A stretch of 64,000 nt of DNA from assembly GCF_055900595.2 (NCBI RefSeq), contig NZ_CM148325.1. One strand, 5' to 3'. Made by a program: the position numbers and the translations under genes. Numbering within the stretch: position 1 is the first letter of the stretch; the number at the start of each line of letters is the position of its first letter. Shown here one piece after another: positions 2,733 through 14,374 of the stretch. Below the pieces are notes generated by a model. It saw nothing but the letters and a program-made list of their open reading frames with translations. It did no database searches and was not told the DNA's origin.

Positions 2733-5409
2733 CGAACCCTTACGTCCCGACCCCGATCGTCTGCTGGAACAAACTGCCGCGCCGCATCGGGGGAAGCTGA
2801 AAGTTTTTTTCGGTGCCTGTGCAGGCGTCGGGAAGACCTGGGCGATGCTGGCAGAAGCCCAACGACTGCGGGCGCAAGGGCTGGATATTGTGGTTGGCGT
2901 GGTTGAAACTCACGGACGGAAAGATACCGCCGCAATGCTGGAAGGGCTGGCTGTTCTGCCGCTAAAACGCCAGGCGTACCGTGGGCGGCATATCAGCGAG
3001 TTTGATCTCGATGCCGCCCTCGCCCGCCGTCCGGCGCTGATCTTAATGGACGAACTGGCGCACAGTAATGCGCCAGGTTCTCGTCATCCTAAACGCTGGC
3101 AGGACATTGAAGAGCTGCTGGAAGCAGGCATTGATGTTTTCACTACCGTCAACGTTCAGCATCTGGAAAGTCTGAATGATGTGGTCAGTGGCGTCACCGG
3201 AATTCAGGTGCGGGAAACCGTGCCCGATCCCTTTTTTGATGCTGCCGACGACGTAGTGCTGGTGGACTTGCCCCCGGACGATCTGCGTCAACGGCTGAAA
3301 GAAGGCAAAGTCTATATTGCCGGGCAGGCGGAGCGCGCCATTGAACATTTTTTCCGCAAAGGCAATCTGATCGCCCTGCGCGAACTGGCACTGCGCCGTA
3401 CTGCCGATCGCGTAGATGAGCAAATGCGCGCCTGGCGGGGGCATCCTGGCGAAGAGAAAGTCTGGCACACGCGCGACGCGATCCTTTTATGCATCGGGCA
3501 TAACATCGGTAGTGAGAAACTGGTCCGCGCGGCGGCGCGGCTGGCGTCACGGCTGGGTAGCGTCTGGCACGCGGTGTATGTTGAAACCCCTGCCCTGCAT
3601 CGCTTACCGGAGAAAAAACGTCGGGCAATTCTCAGCGCCTTACGTCTGGCGCAGGAGCTGGGCGCGGAGACAGCAACACTTTCTGATCCGGCGGAAGAAA
3701 AAGCCGTAGTGCGTTATGCCCGTGAACATAATCTCGGCAAGATTATTCTCGGTCGCCCGGCCTCACGCCGCTGGTGGCGTCGGGAAACTTTTGCTGACCG
3801 ACTGGCGCGCATCGCCCCCGATCTCGATCAGGTGCTGGTCGCGCTTGATGAACCACCCGCCCGCACGATTAACAACGCGCCGGATAGCCGCTCTTTTAAA
3901 GACAAGTGGCGGGTACAAATTCAGGGATGCGTGGTTGCCGCCGCGTTATGCGCCGTTATCACCTTAATTGCCATGCAATGGCTGATGGCGTTTGATGCCG
4001 CCAACCTGGTGATGCTGTATCTGCTTGGCGTGGTGGTAGTGGCACTGTTTTATGGACGCTGGCCTTCGGTGCTTGCTACCGTCATTAATGTGGTGAGTTT
4101 CGATCTCTTTTTTATCGCCCCACGCGGCACGCTCGCCGTCTCTGATGTGCAGTATCTGCTGACTTTCGCGGTGATGTTAACCGTCGGGCTGGTGATCGGG
4201 AATCTTACTGCTGGCGTACGTTATCAGGCGCGGGTAGCCCGTTACCGCGAGCAACGCACACGACACTTATATGAAATGTCGAAAGCTCTGGCTGTGGGCC
4301 GCAGTCCGCAGGACATCGCCGCCACCAGCGAACAATTTATTGCTTCTACATTTCATGCCCGCAGCCAGGTGTTGTTGCCCGATGACAAAGGTAAATTACA
4401 GCCGTTAACACATCCGCAAGGAATGACGCCGTGGGAAGATGCCATCGCGCAGTGGAGTTTTGATAAAGGCCTGCCTGCGGGCGCGGGCACCGACACGTTA
4501 CCCGGTGTGCCATACCAGATTTTGCCGTTAAAAAGCGGCGAGAAAACCTACGGACTGGTGGTGGTGGAACCGGGGAATCTGCGCCAGTTGATGATCCCGG
4601 AACAGCAACGCCTGCTGGAGACGTTTACGTTGTTAGTCGCCAATGCCCTGGAACGCCTGACGCTGACCGCCAGCGAAGAACAGGCGCGGATGGCAAGCGA
4701 ACGTGAACAGATCCGCAACGCCCTGCTGGCGGCGCTTTCGCACGATTTACGCACGCCGCTTACGGTGCTGTTCGGTCAGGCAGAAATCTTAACGCTCGAT
4801 CTGGCAAGCGAAGGATCGCCCCACGCCCACCAGGCCAGCGAGATTCGTCAGCATGTGCTGAACACGACCCGACTGGTGAATAATCTACTGGATATGGCGC
4901 GAATTCAGTCCGGCGGCTTTAATTTGAAGAAAGAGTGGTTAACGCTGGAAGAAGTGGTCGGCAGCGCGCTGCAAATGCTGGAACCGGGTTTATCGTCGCC
5001 CATCAATCTTTCTCTGCCAGAACCGCTGACCTTAATCCACGTTGACGGGCCACTCTTTGAACGGGTGCTGATTAATCTGCTGGAGAACGCGGTGAAATAC
5101 GCGGGTGCACAGGCCGAAATTGGTATCGATGCCCACGTTGAGGGCGAAAATCTACAACTGGATGTCTGGGATAACGGCCCCGGTCTTCCGCCAGGCCAGG
5201 AGCAGACGATATTCGATAAGTTTGCCCGCGGGAATAAAGAGTCGGCGGTGCCGGGCGTCGGGCTTGGGCTGGCAATTTGTCGGGCGATTGTGGATGTACA
5301 CGGCGGCACCATTACCGCGTTCAACCGACCGGAAGGTGGTGCCTGTTTTCGTGTTACACTTCCCCAGCAAACTGCCCCTGAACTTGAAGAATTTCATGAG
5401 GATATGTGA
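2725..5409 (+). CDS. kdpD: Sensor histidine kinase KdpD
   Basis: ORF 2692-5409; start placed at [16 protein letters not shown] (894 aa); Usp-like N-terminal domain, 4 TM helices, H-box (LSHDLRTPL) and ATPase domain. Confidence 0.95.
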
Positions 5410-6083
5410 CAAACGTTCTGATTGTTGAAGATGAACAGGCTATTCGTCGCTTTCTGCGCACGGCGCTGGAGGGTGACGGTATGCGCGTTTTTGAAGCCGA
5501 AACGCTGCAACGGGGGCTGCTGGAAGCGGCAACTCGTAAGCCAGATTTGATTATTCTCGATCTCGGCCTGCCAGACGGTGATGGGATTGAGTTTATCCGC
5601 GACCTGCGCCAGTGGAGCGCGGTGCCGGTGATTGTGCTTTCCGCACGTAGCGAAGAGAGCGACAAAATCGCCGCGCTGGATGCTGGAGCGGATGATTACC
5701 TGAGTAAGCCGTTTGGCATTGGTGAATTGCAGGCCCGTCTGCGCGTTGCTTTACGCCGCCACTCTGCTACCACCGCGCCCGATCCGCGGGTGAAATTTTC
5801 TGATGTTACCGTCGATTTAGCCGCCCGCGTGATTCACCGCAGTGAGGAAGAGGTGCATCTCACCCCGATTGAATTCCGCCTGCTGGCGGTGCTGCTCAAC
5901 AATGCCGGAAAAGTGCTCACCCAGCGCCAGTTACTCATTCAGGTGTGGGGACCAAACGCGGTCGAACACAGCCATTATTTGCGTATTTATATGGGGCATC
6001 TGCGACAAAAACTGGAGCAAGATCCCGCCCGCCCTCGCCATTTTATTACTGAAACCGGTATTGGGTATCGGTTTATGCCATGA
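5406..6083 (+). CDS. kdpE: Response regulator KdpE (OmpR family)
   Basis: 225-aa ORF with a GTG start overlapping the kdpD stop (ATGTGA); receiver domain plus winged-helix domain. Confidence 0.95.
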   Translation: MTNVLIVEDEQAIRRFLRTALEGDGMRVFEAETLQRGLLEAATRKPDLIILDLGLPDGDGIEFIRDLRQWSAVPVIVLSARSEESDKIAALDAGADDYLSKPFGIGELQARLRVALRRHSATTAPDPRVKFSDVTVDLAARVIHRSEEEVHLTPIEFRLLAVLLNNAGKVLTQRQLLIQVWGPNAVEHSHYLRIYMGHLRQKLEQDPARPRHFITETGIGYRFMP

Positions 6084-6128
6084 ATTATTATTCAATAAAT
6101 ACGCTTAACTAATTATTAATTTATTATT

Positions 6129-6170
6129 AAACCTGCCCCGAAAATTATTATTTGGCAGGTTTAATTTCTT
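6129..6170 (+). terminator. Putative intrinsic terminator downstream of kdpE
   Basis: Inverted repeat aaacctgcc...ggcaggttt (9-bp stem) in an AT-rich region after the kdpE stop; the loop is long (about 16 nt), so it is weak. Confidence 0.35.
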
Positions 6171-6357
6171 AATGAAAATATAACCTACGAAATTGCAACA
6201 TTTAAACAACAAAACAGCATCTAATATGGCGCTATTCATAATTAACGATTTATTATTTGGGGTGTGATCGTTTTTTGTTGATCTTCTTCACAGTTTATAG
6301 CCTTTTCATGGATAGAATAACTCTACCTTCAACTGACACAGCAAAAGGTAAAGGTAA

Positions 6358-6462
6358 ATGGAAAATAATAACCGCTTAATGCCTCATATAAGGCGGACAA
6401 CCCATATCATGAAGTTTGCCCATCGTAATAGTTTTGACTTTCATTTCTTTAATGCCCGTTAG
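6358..6462 (+). CDS. speFL: Leader (arrest) peptide of the speF operon, 34 codons
   Basis: Small ORF read directly: MENNNRLMPHIRRTTHIMKFAHRNSFDFHFFNAR, stop TAG at 6460-6462, about 300 nt upstream of speF. Matches the SpeFL ornithine-sensing arrest peptide as I recall it. Below the ORF-track length cutoff. Confidence 0.8.
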   Translation: MENNNRLMPHIRRTTHIMKFAHRNSFDFHFFNAR

Positions 6463-6772
6463 TCTTCTGACTAAAGGGCACCCCAGCGTACAGGTCTCCC
6501 TGACTTTAAGCATTACAGGTTAATACCTGTATCCCTCGGTGCTCATATACTGCTAACCCTTTTAAACTCTAAATAATTCAAGTCGCAGCACTAGCAACTT
6601 GAAGTATGACGAGTATAGCCAGTTACCGGGCTGGTCTGGGTTATTGCATCTGCAAAAAGCAAACTACTGATTTATTTATCAGCGGTGGAGTTTTGCTTTT
6701 TTTCCGGCGTGATCGATTTCTCCTCTGAGAAATTGAGGACCTGCTATTACCTGAAATAAAGAGATGAACAAA

Positions 6773-8971
6773 ATGTCAGAATTAAAAATTGCCGTTAGTC
6801 GTTCTTGCCCGGATTGTTTTTCCACTCATCGTGCATGCGTGAATATTGACGAAAGTAATTATATTGACGTTGCCGCCATTATTTTATCAGTCAATGATGT
6901 TGAACGTGGAAAACTCGATGAAATAGACGCTACTGGCTATGGCATTCCTGTTTTTATTGCAACGGAAAATGAAGAACGTGTACCAGCAGAATATCTGCCA
7001 CGTATTACTGGTGTCTTCGAGCATTGTGAATCACGGAAAGAATTTTACGGACGTCAGTTAGAAACCGCTGCCAGCCATTATGAAACGCAGTTGCGCCCGC
7101 CCTTCTTCCGCGCACTGGTCGATTATGTCAATCAGGGCAATAGCGCTTTTGACTGCCCGGGTCATCAGGGGGGTGAGTTTTTCCGTCGCCATCCGGCAGG
7201 CAATCAGTTCGTGGAATATTTTGGTGAAATGCTCTTCCGCTCCGACTTGTGTAATGCCGACGTAGCAATGGGCGATCTACTGATTCATGAAGGTGCGCCA
7301 TGCATTGCACAGCAACATGCGGCTAAAGTGTTTAATGCCGATAAAACGTACTTTGTTTTAAACGGCACCTCCTCTTCCAACAAAGTGGTTTTAAACGCCC
7401 TGCTAACACCGGGTGATCTGGTGCTGTTTGACCGCAATAACCATAAGTCTAACCACCACGGGGCCTTGCTACAGGCTGGTGCAACACCGGTTTATCTGGA
7501 AACAGCACGTAACCCGTATGGTTTTATCGGTGGTATTGATGCGCACTGCTTCGAAGAAAGTTATCTGCGTGAACTGATTAGAGAAGTTGCACCGCAACGG
7601 GCAAAAGAGGCGCGTCCGTTCCGCCTCGCTGTGATTCAGTTAGGCACCTACGACGGTACTATTTATAACGCCCGCCAGGTGGTGGATAAAATCGGTCATC
7701 TGTGTGACTACATCCTGTTTGACTCAGCATGGGTCGGCTATGAACAGTTTATTCCGATGATGGCGGACTGTTCGCCGCTGCTACTGGAGCTTAATGAGAA
7801 CGATCCGGGTATTCTGGTTACGCAATCTGTACATAAGCAGCAGGCTGGTTTTTCTCAGACTTCACAAATTCATAAAAAAGACAGCCATATCAAAGGGCAA
7901 CAGCGTTATGTCCCGCACAAACGCATGAACAACGCCTTTATGATGCACGCCTCCACCAGCCCGTTCTATCCGCTGTTTGCCGCACTGGATATTAACGCCA
8001 AAATGCATGAAGGTGTCAGCGGTCGTAATATGTGGATGGATTGTGTGGTTAACGGTATTAATGCCCGCAAATTGATCCTCGATAACTGTCAGCACATTCG
8101 TCCGTTCGTTCCTGAACTGGTGGATGGTAAACCCTGGCAATCGTATGAAACAGCGCAAATTGCGGTTGATCTGCGCTTCTTTAAATTTGTACCCGGTGAG
8201 CACTGGCATTCTTTTGAAGGTTACGCAGAGAACCAATACTTTGTCGATCCGTGCAAACTGTTGCTGACAACTCCTGGCATTGATGCACGTAACGGCGAAT
8301 ATGAAGCATTCGGTGTACCCGCGACGATTCTTGCTAACTTCCTGCGCGAAAATGGCGTAGTGCCGGAAAAATGCGATCTTAACTCCATCCTCTTCCTGCT
8401 GACTCCGGCAGAAGATATGGCCAAACTGCAGCAACTTGTTGCCCTGCTGGTACGCTTCGAAAAACTACTGGAAGCTGATGCGCCTCTGGCGGAAGTATTG
8501 CCTTCCATCTACAAACAGCATGAAGAGCGCTACGCCGGTTATACCCTGCGTCAGTTGTGCCAGGAAATGCATGATTTGTATGCCCGTCACAACGTGAAAC
8601 AACTGCAAAAAGAGATGTTCCGTAAGGAACACTTCCCACGCGTCAGCATGAATCCACAGGAAGCCAACTATGCCTACTTACGCGGTGAAGTGGAATTGGT
8701 TCGTCTGCCGGATGCAGAAGGCCGTATCGCAGCCGAAGGTGCGCTTCCTTATCCTCCGGGTGTGCTGTGTGTTGTTCCGGGTGAAATCTGGGGTGGTGCT
8801 GTTCTGCATTACTTCAGCGCTCTGGAAGAAGGGATCAACCTGCTGCCAGGTTTTGCACCGGAGCTGCAGGGTGTCTATATCGAAGAACATGATGGTCGTA
8901 AGCAAGTTTGGTGCTATGTCATCAAGCCTCGTGATGCGCAAAGCACCCTGTTGAAAGGGGAAAAATTATGA
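6773..8971 (+). CDS. speF: Inducible ornithine decarboxylase
   Basis: ORF 6764-8971 (735 aa); PLP-dependent Orn/Lys/Arg decarboxylase family. Start at MSELKIAV (6773) preferred over 6764; the choice is uncertain. Confidence 0.93.
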   Translation: MSELKIAVSRSCPDCFSTHRACVNIDESNYIDVAAIILSVNDVERGKLDEIDATGYGIPVFIATENEERVPAEYLPRITGVFEHCESRKEFYGRQLETAASHYETQLRPPFFRALVDYVNQGNSAFDCPGHQGGEFFRRHPAGNQFVEYFGEMLFRSDLCNADVAMGDLLIHEGAPCIAQQHAAKVFNADKTYFVLNGTSSSNKVVLNALLTPGDLVLFDRNNHKSNHHGALLQAGATPVYLETARNPYGFIGGIDAHCFEESYLRELIREVAPQRAKEARPFRLAVIQLGTYDGTIYNARQVVDKIGHLCDYILFDSAWVGYEQFIPMMADCSPLLLELNENDPGILVTQSVHKQQAGFSQTSQIHKKDSHIKGQQRYVPHKRMNNAFMMHASTSPFYPLFAALDINAKMHEGVSGRNMWMDCVVNGINARKLILDNCQHIRPFVPELVDGKPWQSYETAQIAVDLRFFKFVPGEHWHSFEGYAENQYFVDPCKLLLTTPGIDARNGEYEAFGVPATILANFLRENGVVPEKCDLNSILFLLTPAEDMAKLQQLVALLVRFEKLLEADAPLAEVLPSIYKQHEERYAGYTLRQLCQEMHDLYARHNVKQLQKEMFRKEHFPRVSMNPQEANYAYLRGEVELVRLPDAEGRIAAEGALPYPPGVLCVVPGEIWGGAVLHYFSALEEGINLLPGFAPELQGVYIEEHDGRKQVWCYVIKPRDAQSTLLKGEKL

Positions 8972-10287
8972 GTCAGGCTAAATCGAACAAAATGGGCGTC
9001 GTTCAGTTAACCATACTGACGATGGTCAACATGATGGGCTCCGGCATCATCATGCTGCCGACAAAGCTTGCCGAAGTTGGGACAATCTCAATAATCTCCT
9101 GGTTGGTGACAGCCGTAGGCTCAATGGCGCTGGCATGGGCATTCGCAAAATGCGGTATGTTCAGCCGTAAATCAGGCGGTATGGGCGGTTATGCCGAGTA
9201 TGCTTTCGGTAAATCCGGTAACTTTATGGCGAACTATACCTACGGCGTCTCGCTGCTGATTGCTAACGTGGCGATTGCTATTTCGGCAGTTGGTTACGGC
9301 ACCGAACTGCTCGGCGCGAGTTTGTCACCAGTGCAGATTGGTCTGGCAACCATCGGAGTGCTGTGGATTTGTACCGTGGCTAACTTTGGTGGTGCGCGCA
9401 TTACCGGGCAAATCAGTAGCATTACCGTGTGGGGGGTCATTATTCCGGTGGTAGGCCTGTGCGTTATCGGCTGGTTCTGGTTTAGCCCGACACTTTACGT
9501 TGATTCCTGGAATCCGCATCATGCACCGTTCTTCAGTGCGGTAGGTTCTTCCATCGCCATGACGCTGTGGGCTTTTCTTGGTCTGGAGTCTGCGTGTGCG
9601 AATACTGATGTAGTGGAAAACCCGGAACGTAATGTGCCAATCGCGGTACTCGGCGGTACGTTAGGTGCGGCGGTGATTTATATCGTCTCCACCAACGTGA
9701 TTGCCGGGATTGTGCCCAATATGGAGCTGGCAAATTCAACGGCACCATTTGGTCTGGCCTTCGCGCAAATGTTCACACCGGAAGTGGGTAAAGTCATTAT
9801 GGCGCTGATGGTGATGTCCTGCTGCGGTTCACTGCTTGGCTGGCAGTTCACCATTGCCCAGGTGTTTAAATCTTCATCTGATGAAGGCTACTTCCCTAAA
9901 ATTTTCTCCCGTGTAACCAAAGTGGATGCACCGGTTCAGGGGATGTTGACCATTGTGATTATTCAGAGTGGATTGGCACTGATGACCATTAGCCCGTCAC
10001 TGAACAGCCAGTTCAACGTGCTGGTTAACCTGGCCGTGGTGACCAATATCATCCCATATATTCTGTCGATGGCGGCATTAGTCATTATTCAGAAGGTCGC
10101 CAATGTGCCACCATCAAAAGCGAAAGTAGCAAACTTTGTTGCCTTTGTTGGTGCGATGTACAGTTTCTATGCGCTGTACTCATCCGGGGAAGAAGCCATG
10201 CTGTACGGTTCCATCGTGACTTTCCTTGGTTGGACACTGTATGGTCTGGTATCACCACGCTTTGAACTGAAAAACAAACACGGTTAA
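8968..10287 (+). CDS. potE: Putrescine:ornithine antiporter
   Basis: 439-aa polytopic membrane ORF (APC family), start overlapping the speF stop (ATGA). Confidence 0.95.
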   Translation: MSQAKSNKMGVVQLTILTMVNMMGSGIIMLPTKLAEVGTISIISWLVTAVGSMALAWAFAKCGMFSRKSGGMGGYAEYAFGKSGNFMANYTYGVSLLIANVAIAISAVGYGTELLGASLSPVQIGLATIGVLWICTVANFGGARITGQISSITVWGVIIPVVGLCVIGWFWFSPTLYVDSWNPHHAPFFSAVGSSIAMTLWAFLGLESACANTDVVENPERNVPIAVLGGTLGAAVIYIVSTNVIAGIVPNMELANSTAPFGLAFAQMFTPEVGKVIMALMVMSCCGSLLGWQFTIAQVFKSSSDEGYFPKIFSRVTKVDAPVQGMLTIVIIQSGLALMTISPSLNSQFNVLVNLAVVTNIIPYILSMAALVIIQKVANVPPSKAKVANFVAFVGAMYSFYALYSSGEEAMLYGSIVTFLGWTLYGLVSPRFELKNKHG

Positions 10288-10305
10288 AAAAAGCGAAATA
10301 AATAT

Positions 10306-10330
10306 CCTCCGGCATAGCCGGAGGTTTTTC
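10306..10330 (+). terminator. Intrinsic terminator after potE
   Basis: cctccggc-ata-gccggagg hairpin followed by tttttc, about 20 nt after the potE stop. Confidence 0.7.
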
Positions 10331-11050
10331 AAATGCGCCTGTAAGGCTCTGTTACCAGCCGCGCCCTAACAGGCGCATACGATCTGACATTTGCATTCAA
10401 CTTCGTTACTTACGGCCCGTAAACGGGCTGCCCGGATATGGAATCGATAACTGCTCCCCCATTTTATCCTCTTCAAGCTGGTGCTTTATGTAGTCCTGTA
10501 TCTTCGCCGTGTTCTTACCCACCGTATCGACATAGTACCCTCGGCACCAGAACTCCCTGTTTCTGTATTTGAATTTCAAATCCCCAAACTGCTCGTAAAG
10601 CATCAGACTGCTTTTCCCTTTCAGATATCCCATAAAGCCGGATACGCTCATTTTGGGTGGGATTTCCACAAGCATATGGATATGATCTGCGCAGCACTCT
10701 GCTTCCAGAATCCGTACGCTTTTCCACTCACACAGCTTTCTCAAAATACTGCCTATCGCCCTACGCTTCTCTCCGTAAAACGCCAGTCTTCGGTATTTCG
10801 GCGCAAAAACTATGTGATATTTACAGTTCCAGCGGGTGTGCGCTAAGCTCTTTTCGTCCCCCATTGGGACCCCCTTTTGATTTCTTGTTTGACACTTGCA
10901 GTTGCCAGACCGCAAGGTGTTTTAACAAATCAAAAGGGGTTTTAATAACTGGCTCAAAGCTGAAAGCTTTCCGGAACCCCCAGCCTAGCTGGGGGTTTTC
11001 TGTGCACAAAAAAAGGGCGATTGAATGATCGCCCTTTCTGTTTGTTGACA
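10330..11050 (-). mobile_element. IS200-like insertion sequence (IS200/IS605 family); ends approximate
   Basis: Contains a Y1 transposase gene (HTRWNCKYHIVFAPKYRR motif) flanked by hairpins: cccccagc-cta-gctggggg at about 10978-10998 and a stem followed by a T-run on the minus strand at about 11012-11045. Size (about 0.7 kb) is consistent with IS200. Exact ends not determinable by eye. Confidence 0.75.
10406..10864 (-). CDS. tnpA: IS200/IS605-family Y1 (HUH) transposase TnpA
   Basis: ORF 10406-10915; start placed at MGDEKSLAHTRWNCKYHIVFAPKYRR (152 aa). Contains the HxH motif (ADHIHMLVEIPP) and a C-terminal region typical of IS200 TnpA. Confidence 0.9.
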   Translation of the reverse strand: MGDEKSLAHTRWNCKYHIVFAPKYRRLAFYGEKRRAIGSILRKLCEWKSVRILEAECCADHIHMLVEIPPKMSVSGFMGYLKGKSSLMLYEQFGDLKFKYRNREFWCRGYYVDTVGKNTAKIQDYIKHQLEEDKMGEQLSIPYPGSPFTGRK

Positions 11051-11078
11051 AAGAGTTCGTTATTTATGCCGCATCCGG

Positions 11079-11221
11079 CAGGTGTAGGATCCAAACGCGG
11101 TCGAACACAGCAACTATTTGCGTAATTATATGAGGCATTTGCGACAAAAACTGGAACAGGATCACGTCCGCCCCGCCATTTCATTACTGAAACCGGTATT
11201 GGGTATCGGTTTATGCTTTGA
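11079..11221 (+). repeat. Decayed direct duplicate of the kdpE 3' end (kdpE-remnant pseudo-sequence)
   Basis: 143 bp that align by eye with kdpE 5940-6083 (caggtgt...aaccggtattgggtatcggtttatgc...tga). The copy has TGG to TAG and a 1-nt deletion, so it is non-coding. Confidence 0.8.
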
Positions 11222-11344
11222 AAAAAGTGGCAATGTATGGATAAAGTCATTTTTTATTCAAATATAAGGAACTTAATATTTAAAAAATGTCCCATACAAT
11301 GCCTCATCATAAATGACACCGTAGCACACAAGGAGCAAGTAGCG

Positions 11345-11995
11345 ATGCGTGAAGTGAGTCAGTTAGTAAATACTGAAGATTCAGCCTGGACAATAATCCA
11401 GAATTGGTTAAAAGAAGCCACAAACCATGCCGAACTCTTACCGGTTAATAAAGATTTAGCCGAAACCGCACTTTATCAATTACAGGTTACAACAAAATCA
11501 CCGATGGGTGCGCTTGTCTATGGCTCCGGAGGTCTGCTGATTGATAACGGTTGGTTACGCATATCAGGCTCTGGTCACCCCCGGTTACCACGAGATCCAG
11601 CAAGTTGGACACAACGCCCTGAATTCGCAAGCGTGCGGGCTTTACCCATCGCCGATGATGTCGCAGGGGGAATTTTTGCTCTTAATGGTGGCGATCTTGG
11701 GGAAGATACTGGCTGCGTTTATTATTTTGCGCCAGATACGCTGAATTGGGAAAGTCTGGAGGTTGGATATTCTGAGTTTCTTCAGTGGGCATTATCCGGT
11801 GATTTAGATACCTTCTATGAAAATGTACGCTGGCCGCAATGGCAAGAAGACGTAATAAAATTATCGGCAACGGAAGCCTTCACTTTCTACCCTTTCTTAT
11901 GGGTACAAAGTGAAGAAGCAAGAACAAGAAAAGTTATTTCGCTTACTGAACTCTGGGAAATGCAGTATCAAATGAAAGAAACAATCACGCAATAA
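11345..11995 (+). CDS. ybfG: Conserved hypothetical protein (YbfG-like, DUF2625 by recollection), apparently intact
   Basis: ORF 11237-11995; start placed at ATG 11345, preceded by aaggag at 11330-11335. The ybfG assignment is positional (between potE and ybfP/pgm) and from memory, not from a domain search. Confidence 0.6.
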   Translation: MREVSQLVNTEDSAWTIIQNWLKEATNHAELLPVNKDLAETALYQLQVTTKSPMGALVYGSGGLLIDNGWLRISGSGHPRLPRDPASWTQRPEFASVRALPIADDVAGGIFALNGGDLGEDTGCVYYFAPDTLNWESLEVGYSEFLQWALSGDLDTFYENVRWPQWQEDVIKLSATEAFTFYPFLWVQSEEARTRKVISLTELWEMQYQMKETITQ

Positions 11996-12004
11996 GACAT
12001 GTTC

Positions 12005-12030
12005 AGGTCCGGGTTTCATTCCCGGACTCG
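12005..12030. terminator. Putative bidirectional terminator between convergent ybfG and ybfP
   Basis: gtccggg-tttcatt-cccggac hairpin in the 40-bp gap between the two stop codons. Confidence 0.5.
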
Positions 12031-12035
12031 CTATT

Positions 12036-12530
12036 TTAATGTGTGTTTATCGCTTTCAATTCTTGCTGGCAATTTTCTGACTGACAGCGTCGCAACTCAA
12101 TAATCCCGACATGCATCATCGAGCCAAAAAATCCGCTTTCGCTGACATAATCCTCATTAACTATCGGTCGAGTGCCGGGCTTACCCTGGCAAATCCCCAT
12201 AAAAAATGAGGTGTAGCATTGCCATTCAGGATTTAAACCGGTCTTTTCTTGTGCTGACATATCATGAAGATAAGTAAGTTCTTTTTCGTTCCCGCCTGAC
12301 AACTGCCAGCGGCGGGTATTATCAGGTAAGTTATCGCCACGGCAATTTGTCTTACACCGGGAAGGCGCAATATTTACCGCAATGCTACCCGTTAATCCTC
12401 TGGTTTTATCTTTAGGGGTCAGTAACCAGTCACCAGCTAATGATGATTGTTCAGGTTGGGCGCATGCTGTCAGCAGTAGTGTGGCGGTAATTAATGCCAC
12501 TCTGACGACCAGACTCCTTTTGGTCTTCAT
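12036..12530 (-). CDS. ybfP: Putative lipoprotein YbfP
   Basis: ORF 12036-12581; start placed at MKTKRSLVVRVALITATLLLTAC (lipobox LLTAC), 164 aa. Confidence 0.8.
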   Translation of the reverse strand: MKTKRSLVVRVALITATLLLTACAQPEQSSLAGDWLLTPKDKTRGLTGSIAVNIAPSRCKTNCRGDNLPDNTRRWQLSGGNEKELTYLHDMSAQEKTGLNPEWQCYTSFFMGICQGKPGTRPIVNEDYVSESGFFGSMMHVGIIELRRCQSENCQQELKAINTH

Positions 12531-12584
12531 TTTGAATTCCCTTGAGCTATTCAGTTTGTTGGCAAAGTACTCGTTGTTCATGCC

Positions 12585-12690
12585 GGATGCGGCGTGAACG
12601 CCTTATCCGTCCTACAAAATAGTGCAAATTCAATATATTGCACCATCCTCGTAGGCCTGATGAACGTAGCGTATCAGGCTATCATAAGTA
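12585..12690. repeat. REP/BIME palindromic elements
   Basis: gccggatgcggcgtgaacgccttatcc... and ...gtaggcctgatgaacgtagcgtatcaggc REP-type units between ybfP and pgm. Confidence 0.7.
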
Positions 12691-12691
12691 A

Positions 12692-12722
12692 AAAGGGCGA
12701 TCTTCCGACCGCCCTTTTTCTT
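12692..12722. terminator. Putative terminator downstream of pgm
   Basis: aaaagggcgatcttccgaccgccctttttc: GC stem flanked by an A-run and a T-run (bidirectional appearance). Confidence 0.6.
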
Positions 12723-12733
12723 ATTTAATGTGT

Positions 12734-14374
12734 TTACGCGTTTTTCAGAACTTCGCTAACAATCTCAACCGCTTCTTTCTCGATCTGCTTGCGATGTTCT
12801 TCACCGAGGAAGCTTTCGCAGTAGATTTTGTATGCGTCTTCCGTGCCTGACGGACGCGCGGCGAACCAGCCGTTGTCAGTCATCACTTTCAGACCGCCAA
12901 TAGAAGCACCGTTGCCCGGTGCCGCCGTCAGGCGCGCGGTGATCGGGTCACCTGCCAGGGTGCTGGCGCTCACCATTTCCGGAGACAGCTTAGACAGCGC
13001 CGCTTTTTGTGCGGAAGTCGCAGCTGCCTGCAAACGGTTGTAGCTCGGCGCACCAAAGCGTTTTGCCAGTTCGTTGTAGTGTTCCTGCGGGTTCTTACCG
13101 GTAACAGCAGTGATTTCCGCCGCCAGCAGACACATAATGATACCGTCTTTATCGGTGGACCACGGCGTGCCGTCGAAACGCAGAAAGGAAGCCCCTGCGC
13201 TCTCTTCGCCGCCAAAGCCGAAGCTGCCGTCGAACAGACCATCCACAAACCATTTGAAACCTACCGGTACTTCTACCAGCTTACGGCCCAAATCGTTGAC
13301 CACGCGGTCGATCATCGCAGAAGAAACCAGCGTTTTACCGACAGCAACATCTTTGCCCCACTGCGGACGATGCTGGAACAGGTAGTTGATCGCCACTGCC
13401 AGGTAATGGTTAGGATTCATCAAACCTGCCGGAGTGACGATACCGTGACGGTCATAATCCGGGTCGTTAGCAAATGCCAGATCGAACTTATCACGCAGTG
13501 CCAGCAGGCCCGCCATTGCACACTCGGAGGAACAGTCCATACGGATCGCGCCGTCTTTATCGAGGTGCATAAAGCGGAAGGTTTGATCGACCTGATCGTT
13601 AACGATGGTCAGGTTAAGGTTGTAATACTCGCCAATACGCTTCCAGTATTCGATACCGGAACCGCCCAGCGGATCAACGCCCAGCGTCAGGCCCGCTTTC
13701 TGAATCGCCGCCATATCAACGATATCGGCCAGACCTTCCACAAACGGCTGCACCAGATCCTGCTCTTTCACATGACCGGATGCCATCGCTTCGTCGAGGG
13801 AGATACGCTTCACACCTTTCAGGCCATCGGCCATCAGTGCGTTGGCCCTGTCTTCCACCACTTTGGTGACGTTGGTATCAGCCGGGCCACCATTTGGCGG
13901 ATTGTACTTGATACCACCATCTTCTGGCGGGTTATGGGACGGTGTAATCACGATACCGTCTGCCAGCGGGCCACCTTTTTTATTGTGAACCAGGATGGCA
14001 TTGGAAACGGCAGGCGTCGGAGTGAAGCCATTGTTTTCCTGCACAATAACATCTACGCCGTTCGCTGCCAGCACTTCCAGTACGGAAATGAACGCAGGCT
14101 CGGACAGGGCGTGAGTATCTTTACCCACATAGCAAGGGCCAGTGATGCCGTTTTTCGCACGTTCTTCAGCAATTGCCTGAGCGATCGCCAGAATATGCGG
14201 CTCGTTAAAGCTATGGCGCGCTGCACTGCCACGGTGACCGGAAGTACCGAATTTCACCGCGTGCTCCGCATTCCCTGCTTCTGGTTTCAGTACATAGTAT
14301 TGCGCCGTCAGTTGGGCGACGTTAATCAAATCACTCTGTTGTGCAGGTTGGCCTGCACGATTGTGGATTGCCAT
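12734..14374 (-). CDS. pgm: Phosphoglucomutase
   Basis: ORF 12734-14425; start placed at [16 protein letters not shown] (546 aa); phosphohexomutase active-site Ser region (GTSGHRGS). Confidence 0.95.

Follow-up and report, generated by a model that had tools for sequence, protein, structure and literature searches.

The ybfI pseudogene downstream of speF-potE: a decayed kdpE 3' end that probably records two stacked kdpE-pgm spacer alleles in Escherichia

Behind the speF-potE operon, the stretch of E. coli DNA analysed here (the window; 64,000 nucleotides) carries a decayed, non-coding copy of the last 144 nt of the response-regulator gene kdpE. The copy, at 11079-11221, is ybfI (b4636), a pseudogene already annotated in the K-12 RefSeq record, and it is not new. 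We consider it probable that one illegitimate recombination event put two alternative kdpE-pgm spacer alleles in tandem and that ybfI is the kdpE end contributed by the speF-less allele. The features of the locus, in window coordinates, are the following.

5406..6083, + strand: kdpE, intact response-regulator gene, 225 aa (ORF; PGAP annotation of the identical strain; NCBIfam, Pfam)
5940..6083, + strand: repeat copy 1, the last 144 nt of kdpE, codons 179-225 plus stop (alignment, repeat finding, blastn)
6358..6462, + strand: speFL leader peptide gene (translation MENNNRLMPHIRRTTHIMKFAHRNSFDFHFFNAR*; annotation)
6773..8971, + strand: speF, inducible ornithine decarboxylase (annotation; tblastn)
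8968..10287, + strand: potE, putrescine-ornithine antiporter (annotation; tblastn)
10303..11008, - strand: IS200, between the potE stop and the potE terminator, with tnpA at 10406-10864 (annotation; Rfam; K-12 comparison)
11010..11042, strand not assigned: T1, potE-side terminator hairpin
11037..11079, + strand: R, a segment of about 43 nt ending in a REP 5' arm (..TGCCGCATCCGGCA) (alignment with BIME-bearing haplotypes)
11079..11221, + strand: repeat copy 2, pseudogene ybfI, decayed kdpE 3' end (alignment; PGAP pseudogene 11091-11221; K-12 ybfI b4636)
11345..11995, + strand: ybfG (DUF2625), intact here, accessory cargo (annotation; GC3 36%)
12036..12530, - strand: ybfP, a lipoprotein according to the K-12 annotation, accessory cargo (annotation)
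12555..12597, + strand: R', second repeat copy of about 43 nt, running into an intact BIME (two REPs, to about 12680)
12690..12722, strand not assigned: T2, pgm-side terminator hairpin
12734..14374, - strand: pgm, convergent neighbour of kdpE, conserved across Enterobacterales (annotation; tblastn)

The upstream KdpE scores 481 bits to the NCBIfam KdpE equivalog and has the Pfam domains Response_reg (residues 4-112) and Trans_reg_C (148-223). Pairwise alignment of its last 144 nt (5940-6083) with 11079-11221 gave about 90% identity, in agreement with the sequence-only reading, which had described a degenerate direct repeat carrying a TGG to TAG change and a 1-nt deletion, with speFL, speF, potE and the IS200 element lying between the two copies. 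Both pairwise alignment and repeat finding separate the similarity into two blocks, 5940-6034 against 11079-11173 (95 nt, 87%) and 6033-6084 against 11171-11222 (52 nt, 92%), and the one-base offset between them corresponds to the deletion, near 11174. Immediately ahead of the stop region, kdpE and the copy are the same over 28 nt (gaaaccggtattgggtatcggtttatgc). The similarity is significant: when the kdpE end was compared by blastn with the whole 64-kb window, the copy was recovered at E=4e-41, and the next-best matches were chance ones of no more than 13 nt. Homology to kdpE starts abruptly at 11079 and stops just past the stop codon (TGAA), and R with its REP arm and the potE terminator lie immediately 5' of it.

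The copy cannot encode a protein. The TAG (11085-11087) is its third codon, so that it translates as QV*DPNAV..., the reading frame is gone after ...QDHVRP, and the copy has neither a start codon nor the first 178 codons of kdpE. No Response_reg receiver domain was found in the copy, where homology starts at kdpE codon 179, nor was a complete Trans_reg_C ORF with a start codon, residues 179-225 of 148-223 being all that is present. Being truncated, interrupted by a stop codon and frameshifted, and a pseudogene in both the K-12 and the PGAP annotation, it is not part of a functional gene. Rfam gave nothing on either repeat copy, and a promoter scan near ybfI produced nothing beyond consensus-level matches, which were as frequent as chance predicts. 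The pseudogene is without function. As a recombination scar it does no harm, and the only effect that can be seen is that cells occasionally delete speF-potE through it.

In K-12 MG1655, ybfI occupies the same locus between potE and ybfG, has the orientation of kdpE and aligns collinearly with the window copy (91.7% identity over 144 nt). The two alleles have four derived substitutions in common, one of them the TAG, whereas the window allele differs by the extra 1-nt deletion and five further substitutions. The window also has IS200 70 nt upstream of ybfI, which K-12 does not, and its ybfG is intact whereas that of K-12 is a pseudogene. An example of a ybfI-type variant is CCGGCCCGGCCTCGCCATTTT. 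A literature search on ybfI, on ybfG/ybfP and on speF+potE+kdpE+pseudogene returned nothing on the E. coli locus, and all the ybfI matches concerned B. subtilis.

In EcoGene, ybfI is reportedly described as a KdpE homologue. The PGAP label, a frameshifted, N-terminally truncated fragment of a "winged helix-turn-helix domain-containing protein", names only the winged helix-turn-helix, as it might if the fragment were the last remnant of a separate paralogous regulator of the OmpR family and no copy of kdpE. Such an origin is scarcely credible, since the DNA is about 90-94% identical to E. coli kdpE alleles with synonymous positions and the stop codon included, the identity drops stepwise as the kdpE orthologues become phylogenetically more distant, and the nearest paralogue families of KdpE score far below its own family. 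For annotation, the fragment is to be treated as a known pseudogene and not taken for a regulator.

The IS200 element contains a Y1 tnpA (PGAP) and the Rfam family STnc490 (10874-10997, 146 bits). It is cleanly absent from K-12 at exactly the same point, and full-length matches to the query occur in a handful of genomes; it is a later, strain-specific insertion, unrelated to the duplication. The ybfG-ybfP block, on the other side of ybfI, looks foreign because the GC3 of ybfG is low (36%, against about 60% in kdpD and pgm) and because its homologues outside E. coli are distant (the nearest YbfG homologues are 52-57% identical, with two intermediate matches of 74% and 86% on contigs of at most about 1 kb). 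A search of 80 Enterobacterales kdpE loci for a foreign donor found no match to DUF2625 or YbfP.

The prophage e14, integrated in icd, leaves icdC, a dead 3'-end fragment, kilobases downstream of the intact upstream gene. The kdpE locus has the same general picture, with a short dead gene 3' end downstream and the upstream gene intact, and an integrative element that targeted the kdpE 3' end and supplied a replacement end could in principle have duplicated its attachment site here. The likeness to icdC goes no further than this picture. No integrase, excisionase, phage or ICE gene lies between or beside the repeats; the genes there are a housekeeping-type operon and two small genes, with nothing but speFL, speF, potE and IS200 in the bracketed segment itself. 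The right-hand junction is a REP and not an att core. The only mobile element, IS200, came later and in particular strains, and its Y1 transposase does not make duplications of this kind. Neither the bracketed element as a unit at this site in unrelated genomes nor an empty site with a single att was encountered; speF-potE mostly occurs without the repeat, and the repeat co-varies with ybfG-ybfP. An attachment-site origin is therefore very improbable.

The arrangement of the locus was surveyed in 5,426 complete E. coli genomes and, between species, in 80 Enterobacterales kdpE loci. The simple state, kdpE-speF-potE-terminator-pgm without the copy, is found in 3,197 of the E. coli genomes (59%), the composite state with the copy and ybfG-ybfP in 1,828 (34%), and an empty state, kdpE-BIME-terminator-pgm without speF-potE, in 354 (6.5%). 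The copy occurs only together with ybfG-ybfP, whose accessory block it opens on the left; ST131 and STEC367 lack it. The order kdpE-speF-potE-pgm is shared by about 30 of the 80 Enterobacterales loci, in many genera (among them E. albertii, Salmonella, and species of Citrobacter, Enterobacter, Kluyvera, Lelliottia, Cedecea and Yokenella), and outside E. coli none of the 80 loci has a second kdpE end.

These distributions bear on the proposal of the sequence-only reading that the repeat is the scar of an event that brought speF-potE next to kdp. That the copy is a non-coding recombination scar stands; that it marks the arrival of speF-potE does not, since the second kdpE end is missing from the roughly 30 speF-potE loci of other genera, from E. 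albertii and from 59% of E. coli. In its full form, the proposal makes the repeat the footprint of the original insertion beside kdp, where incoming DNA brought its own kdpE 3' end (Campbell-type) and the old end decayed. Direct repeats do bracket speFL-speF-potE, with a geometry that fits; speF-potE is patchy between kdpE and pgm across genera, even within Citrobacter and Enterobacter, as an insertable module would be; and speF has a GC3 of 47%, against about 60% in the flanking genes. However, the copy is strictly linked to ybfG-ybfP and is E. coli-like at synonymous sites, which makes it far younger than the kdpE-speF synteny common to Salmonella. As an account of first acquisition the proposal is already contradicted, and we give it a low probability overall. 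A narrower form, in which a ybfG-ybfP chromosome regained speF-potE from another E. coli, would yield the same product as the stacking that we favour. The sequence-only reading had also proposed to check whether kdpE abuts ybfG where speF-potE is lacking. This was seen in two E. coli genomes only, CUWW10, which is a recent deletion between the repeats, and GF4-3, which is ambiguous; in other genera kdpE abuts pgm, and the 354 empty E. coli genomes have BIME-terminator-pgm. The locus thus shows that genes bracketed by a duplicated gene end did not necessarily arrive with it.

When the ancestral ybfI was reconstructed and compared over its 144 sites, 9-12 differences separated it from E. coli kdpE alleles, 14-15 from the kdpE of other Escherichia, and 23-27 from that of Citrobacter and Salmonella; 144 nt are too short for a confident placing of the donor allele. 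Because ybfI is nearest to E. coli kdpE alleles and far from those of other genera, the event was a later recombination within Escherichia. The copy stems from Escherichia and had a single origin, as the four derived changes shared by the window and K-12 alleles also indicate. The possibility that the kdpE end of the window is an imported divergent allele was considered and dropped, as the K-12 allele proved to be the outlier instead.

The flanks of the copy agree with two spacer alleles. A speF-less allele is real and old: in the empty state, found in E. coli and in one divergent Escherichia, kdpE ends in a TAG stop that is followed by about 11 nt and then by BIME-T2-pgm, and the R'-BIME-T2-pgm segment of the composite is collinear with it. 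T1 is of the type of the single potE/pgm terminator of E. albertii, and T2 of the type of the single terminator in simple and empty E. coli genomes; the composite holds both. The kdpE fragment is joined, inside a REP element, to the DNA behind the potE terminator. The novel joint falls directly 3' of the REP 5' arm, where the composite reads ..CCGGCA/GGTGTAGG and the empty allele ..CCGGCA/TGAACGCC, and comparison with BIME-bearing alleles (..TGCCGCATCCGGCA/GGTGTAGG) likewise puts it at the edge of the REP, as in a REP-associated illegitimate join. R and R' are an imperfect direct repeat, only 81-86% identical over about 43 nt. A MAFFT alignment hinted that R might be a more decayed kdpE end; by eye the match amounts to only 8 nt (TTTATGCC), and this candidate was rejected.

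REP elements reportedly serve as join points of tandem duplications in Salmonella, and the joint at kdpE likewise lies just after the 5' arm of a BIME REP. Unlike in Salmonella, the partners here appear to be two alleles of one locus and not the same segment twice, and the kdpE side of the joint is without a REP. The Salmonella precedent would fit an origin from one chromosome, in which the segment between kdpE codon 179 and the REP behind potE underwent a REP-mediated tandem duplication, after which the second speF-potE was replaced or deleted and foreign ybfG-ybfP was inserted behind the duplicated kdpE end. The position of the join point at a REP speaks for this, as does the fact that both units open with a kdpE 3' end and close with R or R'. 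Yet it requires several precise extra steps, the homology of the units breaks off right at the kdpE stop codon and nothing of the speF leader follows ybfI, and duplication of a single chromosome leaves the two terminator types, T1 and T2, unexplained. We regard this origin as unlikely.

The stacking of two alleles would proceed as follows. The convergent kdpE/pgm junction of Escherichia exists as alternative alleles, the first kdpE-speFL-speF-potE-terminator-pgm and the second kdpE-BIME-terminator-pgm; a third, which we infer, would be the second with ybfG-ybfP inserted directly behind kdpE, at its stop codon. Just one REP-associated illegitimate exchange between the speF-potE allele and the ybfG-ybfP allele would then have placed both spacers in tandem, each unit keeping a kdpE 3' end at its start and its own version of the terminator, T1 or T2, at its end. 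The downstream kdpE end would have lost the body of its gene and then decayed. Entry of speF-potE into a ybfG-ybfP chromosome and the reverse event would give an identical product, and the insertion of ybfG-ybfP may have come before or after the duplication of the kdpE end. A clearly primary, ancient kdpE-ybfG-ybfP chromosome was not found among the genomes surveyed, CUWW10 being a recent derivative and GF4-3 ambiguous. The simple E. coli haplotype carries a terminator of the T2 type and so could come from the composite by T1/T2 recombination, in which case the composite would be older than assumed.

A broader interpretation, which we offer tentatively and hold to be rather less likely than not, is that the kdpE/pgm junction of Escherichia is a cassette site defined by its flanks. 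Its cargos (speF-potE, ybfG-ybfP, nothing, and others in other genera) would be swapped by recombination in the conserved flanks, and illegitimate joins at REPs could set them one behind the other. In ybfI we would then have the remains of one such event, and the repeats would drive recurrent loss of the ornithine decarboxylase or the antiporter in natural E. coli. If true, this could be one reason why the ornithine-decarboxylase phenotype of E. coli varies. The practical importance of the locus is small, and the case belongs to ordinary genome archaeology; for evolution it may serve as a worked example of alternative intergenic-spacer alleles stacked by one illegitimate join. Where strains differ in inducible ornithine decarboxylase or in putrescine export, loss of speF-potE is relevant: some 6.5% of the complete E. 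coli genomes are without it at this locus, and a few losses came about via the ybfI repeat or IS1.

The direct repeats of 144 nt would allow an in-register deletion of speFL-speF-potE, and R/R' a deletion of ybfI-ybfG-ybfP; both are partly borne out by natural variants, from which the deletions are deduced, with about two assemblies for each. In GF4-3 and CUWW10 an intact kdpE leads in register into the downstream flank of ybfI and on to ybfG-ybfP-pgm, and speFL-speF-potE is missing; this is exactly the in-register product that recombination between the kdpE end and ybfI, two short direct repeats, would leave. Over the 1,946 nt that end at the kdpE stop, CUWW10 and K-12 are 100% identical, and the exchange in CUWW10 is confined to the last 19 identical bases, a length that is very short for RecA-dependent recombination. 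Three further genomes, R32_14_1F, N96 and E69, have the order potE-T1-R-BIME-T2-pgm, as expected from recombination between R and R'.

The window is 100% identical to E. coli Z0117EC0005 and a few further strains, and its orientation is opposite to that of K-12. The gene order is kdpD, kdpE, speFL, speF, potE, IS200, T1, ybfI, ybfG, ybfP, BIME, T2 and pgm, in which T1 and T2 are the potE-side and pgm-side terminator hairpins and ybfI is a kdpE-like fragment.

Features of the kdpE-pgm region in the window
5406-6083, kdpE
6358-6462, speFL
6773-8971, speF
8968-10287, potE
10303-11008, IS200, with tnpA on the minus strand
11010-11042, T1, terminator hairpin
11079-11221, kdpE-like fragment (ybfI)
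11345-11995, ybfG (DUF2625)
12036-12530, minus strand, ybfP
between ybfP and T2, BIME
12690-12722, T2, second terminator
12734-14374, minus strand, pgm

The IS200 is strain-specific and sits between the potE stop codon and the potE terminator; it contains an Rfam STnc490 element (10874-10997), and by separating potE from T1 it could affect termination of potE. An Rfam ES036 (CssrF) sRNA match (12616-12658; 45.5 bits, gathering score 37.6) lies inside the pgm-adjacent BIME, in the spacer that separates its two REPs. The 43-aa 'TonB-dependent receptor' CDS called by PGAP in the speF leader (window 6248-6379, overlapping the speFL start; 3849-3980 in the annotation of an identical strain) is almost certainly a spurious call.

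The sequence-only reading had described a decayed direct copy of the kdpE end at 11079-11221, and this was confirmed by two direct repeat blocks, 5940-6034 with 11079-11173 (87% identity) and 6033-6084 with 11171-11222 (92% identity), which are offset by one base. The match between the kdpE end and ybfI has E=4e-41 across the whole window, and chance matches reach 13 nt at most. The reported TGG to TAG change and 1-nt deletion are both real, because the copy is translated as QV*DPNAV... and the frame is lost further on. As also claimed, the copy is not protein-coding: ybfI covers KdpE residues 179-225, is smaller than the Trans_reg_C domain (residues 148-223) and has no start codon, so it cannot encode a regulator and does nothing as a gene. 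The feature is already known as an annotated pseudogene. PGAP labels it a pseudogene, 'winged helix-turn-helix domain-containing protein; frameshifted; incomplete; missing N-terminus', and the orthologous potE-ybfG interval of K-12 MG1655 holds the pseudogene ybfI (b4636), with 91.7% identity to the window fragment. No discussion of ybfI was found in the searchable literature.

Since the window and K-12 alleles share four derived changes, TAG among them, ybfI arose once. Over 144 sites, the inferred ancestral ybfI shows 9-12 differences from the kdpE alleles of E. coli, 14-15 from kdpE of strains E69 and SCPM-O-B-8794 and of E. albertii, and 23-27 from kdpE of Citrobacter and Salmonella, so its source was an E. 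coli-type kdpE rather than a paralogue or a distant donor.

The ybfI fragment is the left end of a ybfI-ybfG-ybfP block, which is exactly the segment (11080-12562) absent from E69 and is bounded by an imperfect direct repeat of ~43 nt, R (11037-11079) and R' (12555-12597), with 81-86% identity. R terminates in the 5' arm of a REP. After ..CCGGCA, other alleles continue with TGAACGCC.. into the REP loop, and the composite allele (with ybfI-ybfG-ybfP) continues with GGTGTAGG.. into kdpE codon 179. Because the composite departs at the REP 5' arm into this codon, the novel joint is an illegitimate join associated with a REP. To the right, ybfI runs through the kdpE stop codon directly into the upstream region of ybfG. 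The composite carries two versions of a terminator that is single elsewhere (potE/pgm or kdpE/pgm): the T1 type is the sole terminator in E. albertii, and the T2 type is the sole one in simple (speF-potE without ybfI) and empty (neither speF-potE nor ybfG-ybfP) E. coli. The R'-BIME-T2-pgm segment is collinear with the empty allele, where the same BIME touches kdpE.

When 5,426 complete E. coli genomes were queried with diagnostic junctions, the kdpE-pgm spacer (window 6084-12733) proved to be a multi-state presence/absence polymorphism.

States of the kdpE-pgm spacer in complete E. coli genomes
Simple, kdpE-speFL-speF-potE-56 bp-pgm: 3,197 genomes (59%), e.g. ST131 CU568-3 and STEC367
Composite, with ybfI: 1,828 genomes (34%)
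Empty, kdpE TAG stop, ~11 nt, BIME-T2-pgm: 354 genomes (6.5%)
kdpE-ybfG-ybfP-pgm: 2 genomes, GF4-3 and CUWW10
IS1-associated deletions: 3 genomes
potE-T1-R-BIME-T2-pgm: 2 genomes

At this locus, the operon for the inducible ornithine decarboxylase and the antiporter is missing from about 6.5% of complete E. coli genomes. The empty form is also found in the divergent Escherichia labelled E. coli SCPM-O-B-8794, and the potE-T1-R-BIME-T2-pgm form in E69; the R/R' repeats account for the rare genomes of the latter form. The ybfI fragment is itself a 144-nt direct repeat of kdpE, 5.1 kb downstream (4.4 kb without IS200). CUWW10 is 100% identical to K-12 across the 1,946 nt that end at the kdpE stop; because it retains a kdpE-specific GGC codon and then changes to the ybfI downstream flank, the exchange occurred inside the last 19 shared bases, removing speFL-speF-potE. 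GF4-3 has the same architecture, and in other assemblies an identical KdpE protein is present in three settings, namely composite, kdpE-ybfG and empty. In ET846, MB10 and KL53, speF-potE was lost via IS1-associated deletions starting in the speF leader, which is independent of the kdpE/ybfI repeat.

A kdpE-based scan of 80 Enterobacterales loci (one per species, up to 10 kb each side where the contig allowed) showed a conserved arrangement of kdpE convergent with pgm, and in many genera the gap is only ~45-60 bp. In ~30 of the 80 loci speF-potE lies between them (E. albertii, Salmonella, species of Citrobacter, Enterobacter, Kluyvera, Lelliottia, Leclercia, Cedecea, Yokenella, Trabulsiella and others), and since this distribution is patchy, even inside single genera, speF-potE acts as an insertable module. 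Other cargo occupies the gap at some loci, including ~9.7 kb in Klebsiella oxytoca and K. spallanzanii, ~7.5 kb in Entomohabitans and Klebsiella sp. BIGb0407, 2.3 kb extra ahead of speF in Phytobacter massiliensis and ~1.1 kb between potE and pgm in Kluyvera genomosp. 1; the site is a hot spot for insertions in general. In the scan, no locus outside E. coli contained a DUF2625 gene, ybfP or a second kdpE end. The association of speF-potE with kdpE is thus far older than the kdpE-end duplication and independent of it.

Most likely, ybfI records the stacking of two spacers by one illegitimate exchange. An empty-type allele would first have gained ybfG-ybfP directly at the kdpE stop codon; a speF-potE allele with a BIME behind its terminator would then have been joined to kdpE codon 179 of the ybfG-ybfP allele, setting the two spacers in tandem and turning the downstream kdpE end into ybfI. 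The sequence-only reading, in which the duplication is the scar of the event that brought speF-potE next to kdp, is only partly supported: a recombination scar it is, but not from the first arrival of speF-potE, which adjoins kdpE without a second kdpE end outside E. coli, and the product is identical for either direction of transfer, speF-potE into a ybfG-ybfP chromosome or ybfG-ybfP into a speF-potE one. The shortness of ybfI is a weak point of this history, and none of the E. coli genomes compared represented a clearly primary kdpE-ybfG-ybfP lineage. A further weak point is that, given the T2-type terminator of the simple allele, simple genomes may derive from composites. The history of ybfI is neat yet ordinary recombination archaeology.

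The ybfG and ybfP genes look foreign, judged by their GC3 (36% and 44%, vs ~60% in kdpD and pgm) and by distant homologues, the closest non-E. coli DUF2625 proteins being 52-57% identical to YbfG. YbfP has no match among NCBIfam models, and ybfG is intact in the window and a pseudogene in K-12.

Identity between the window and K-12 is only 58-88% in a stretch (window 5900-7400) that starts at the kdpE 3' end, spans the speFL leader and takes in the first third of speF, vs ~93-99% in the remainder of the aligned kdpD-potE region. The K-12 allele is the outlier: relative to the allele that the window has in common with ST131 and STEC367, it is 74% identical in the leader and 84% in the speF 5' third, and the K-12 leader resembles Citrobacter-type leaders more closely (80-82%). 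These values suggest that the segment was imported from another genus, the left boundary of the import lying in the kdpE end. In E69, speF-potE shares only 88-89% identity with its E. coli counterpart, about as distant as that of E. albertii, whereas kdpD (96%) and pgm (95-97%) resemble those of E. coli; a divergent speF-potE allele was therefore probably imported. The SpeFL peptides of the window and K-12 differ in two N-terminal residues.
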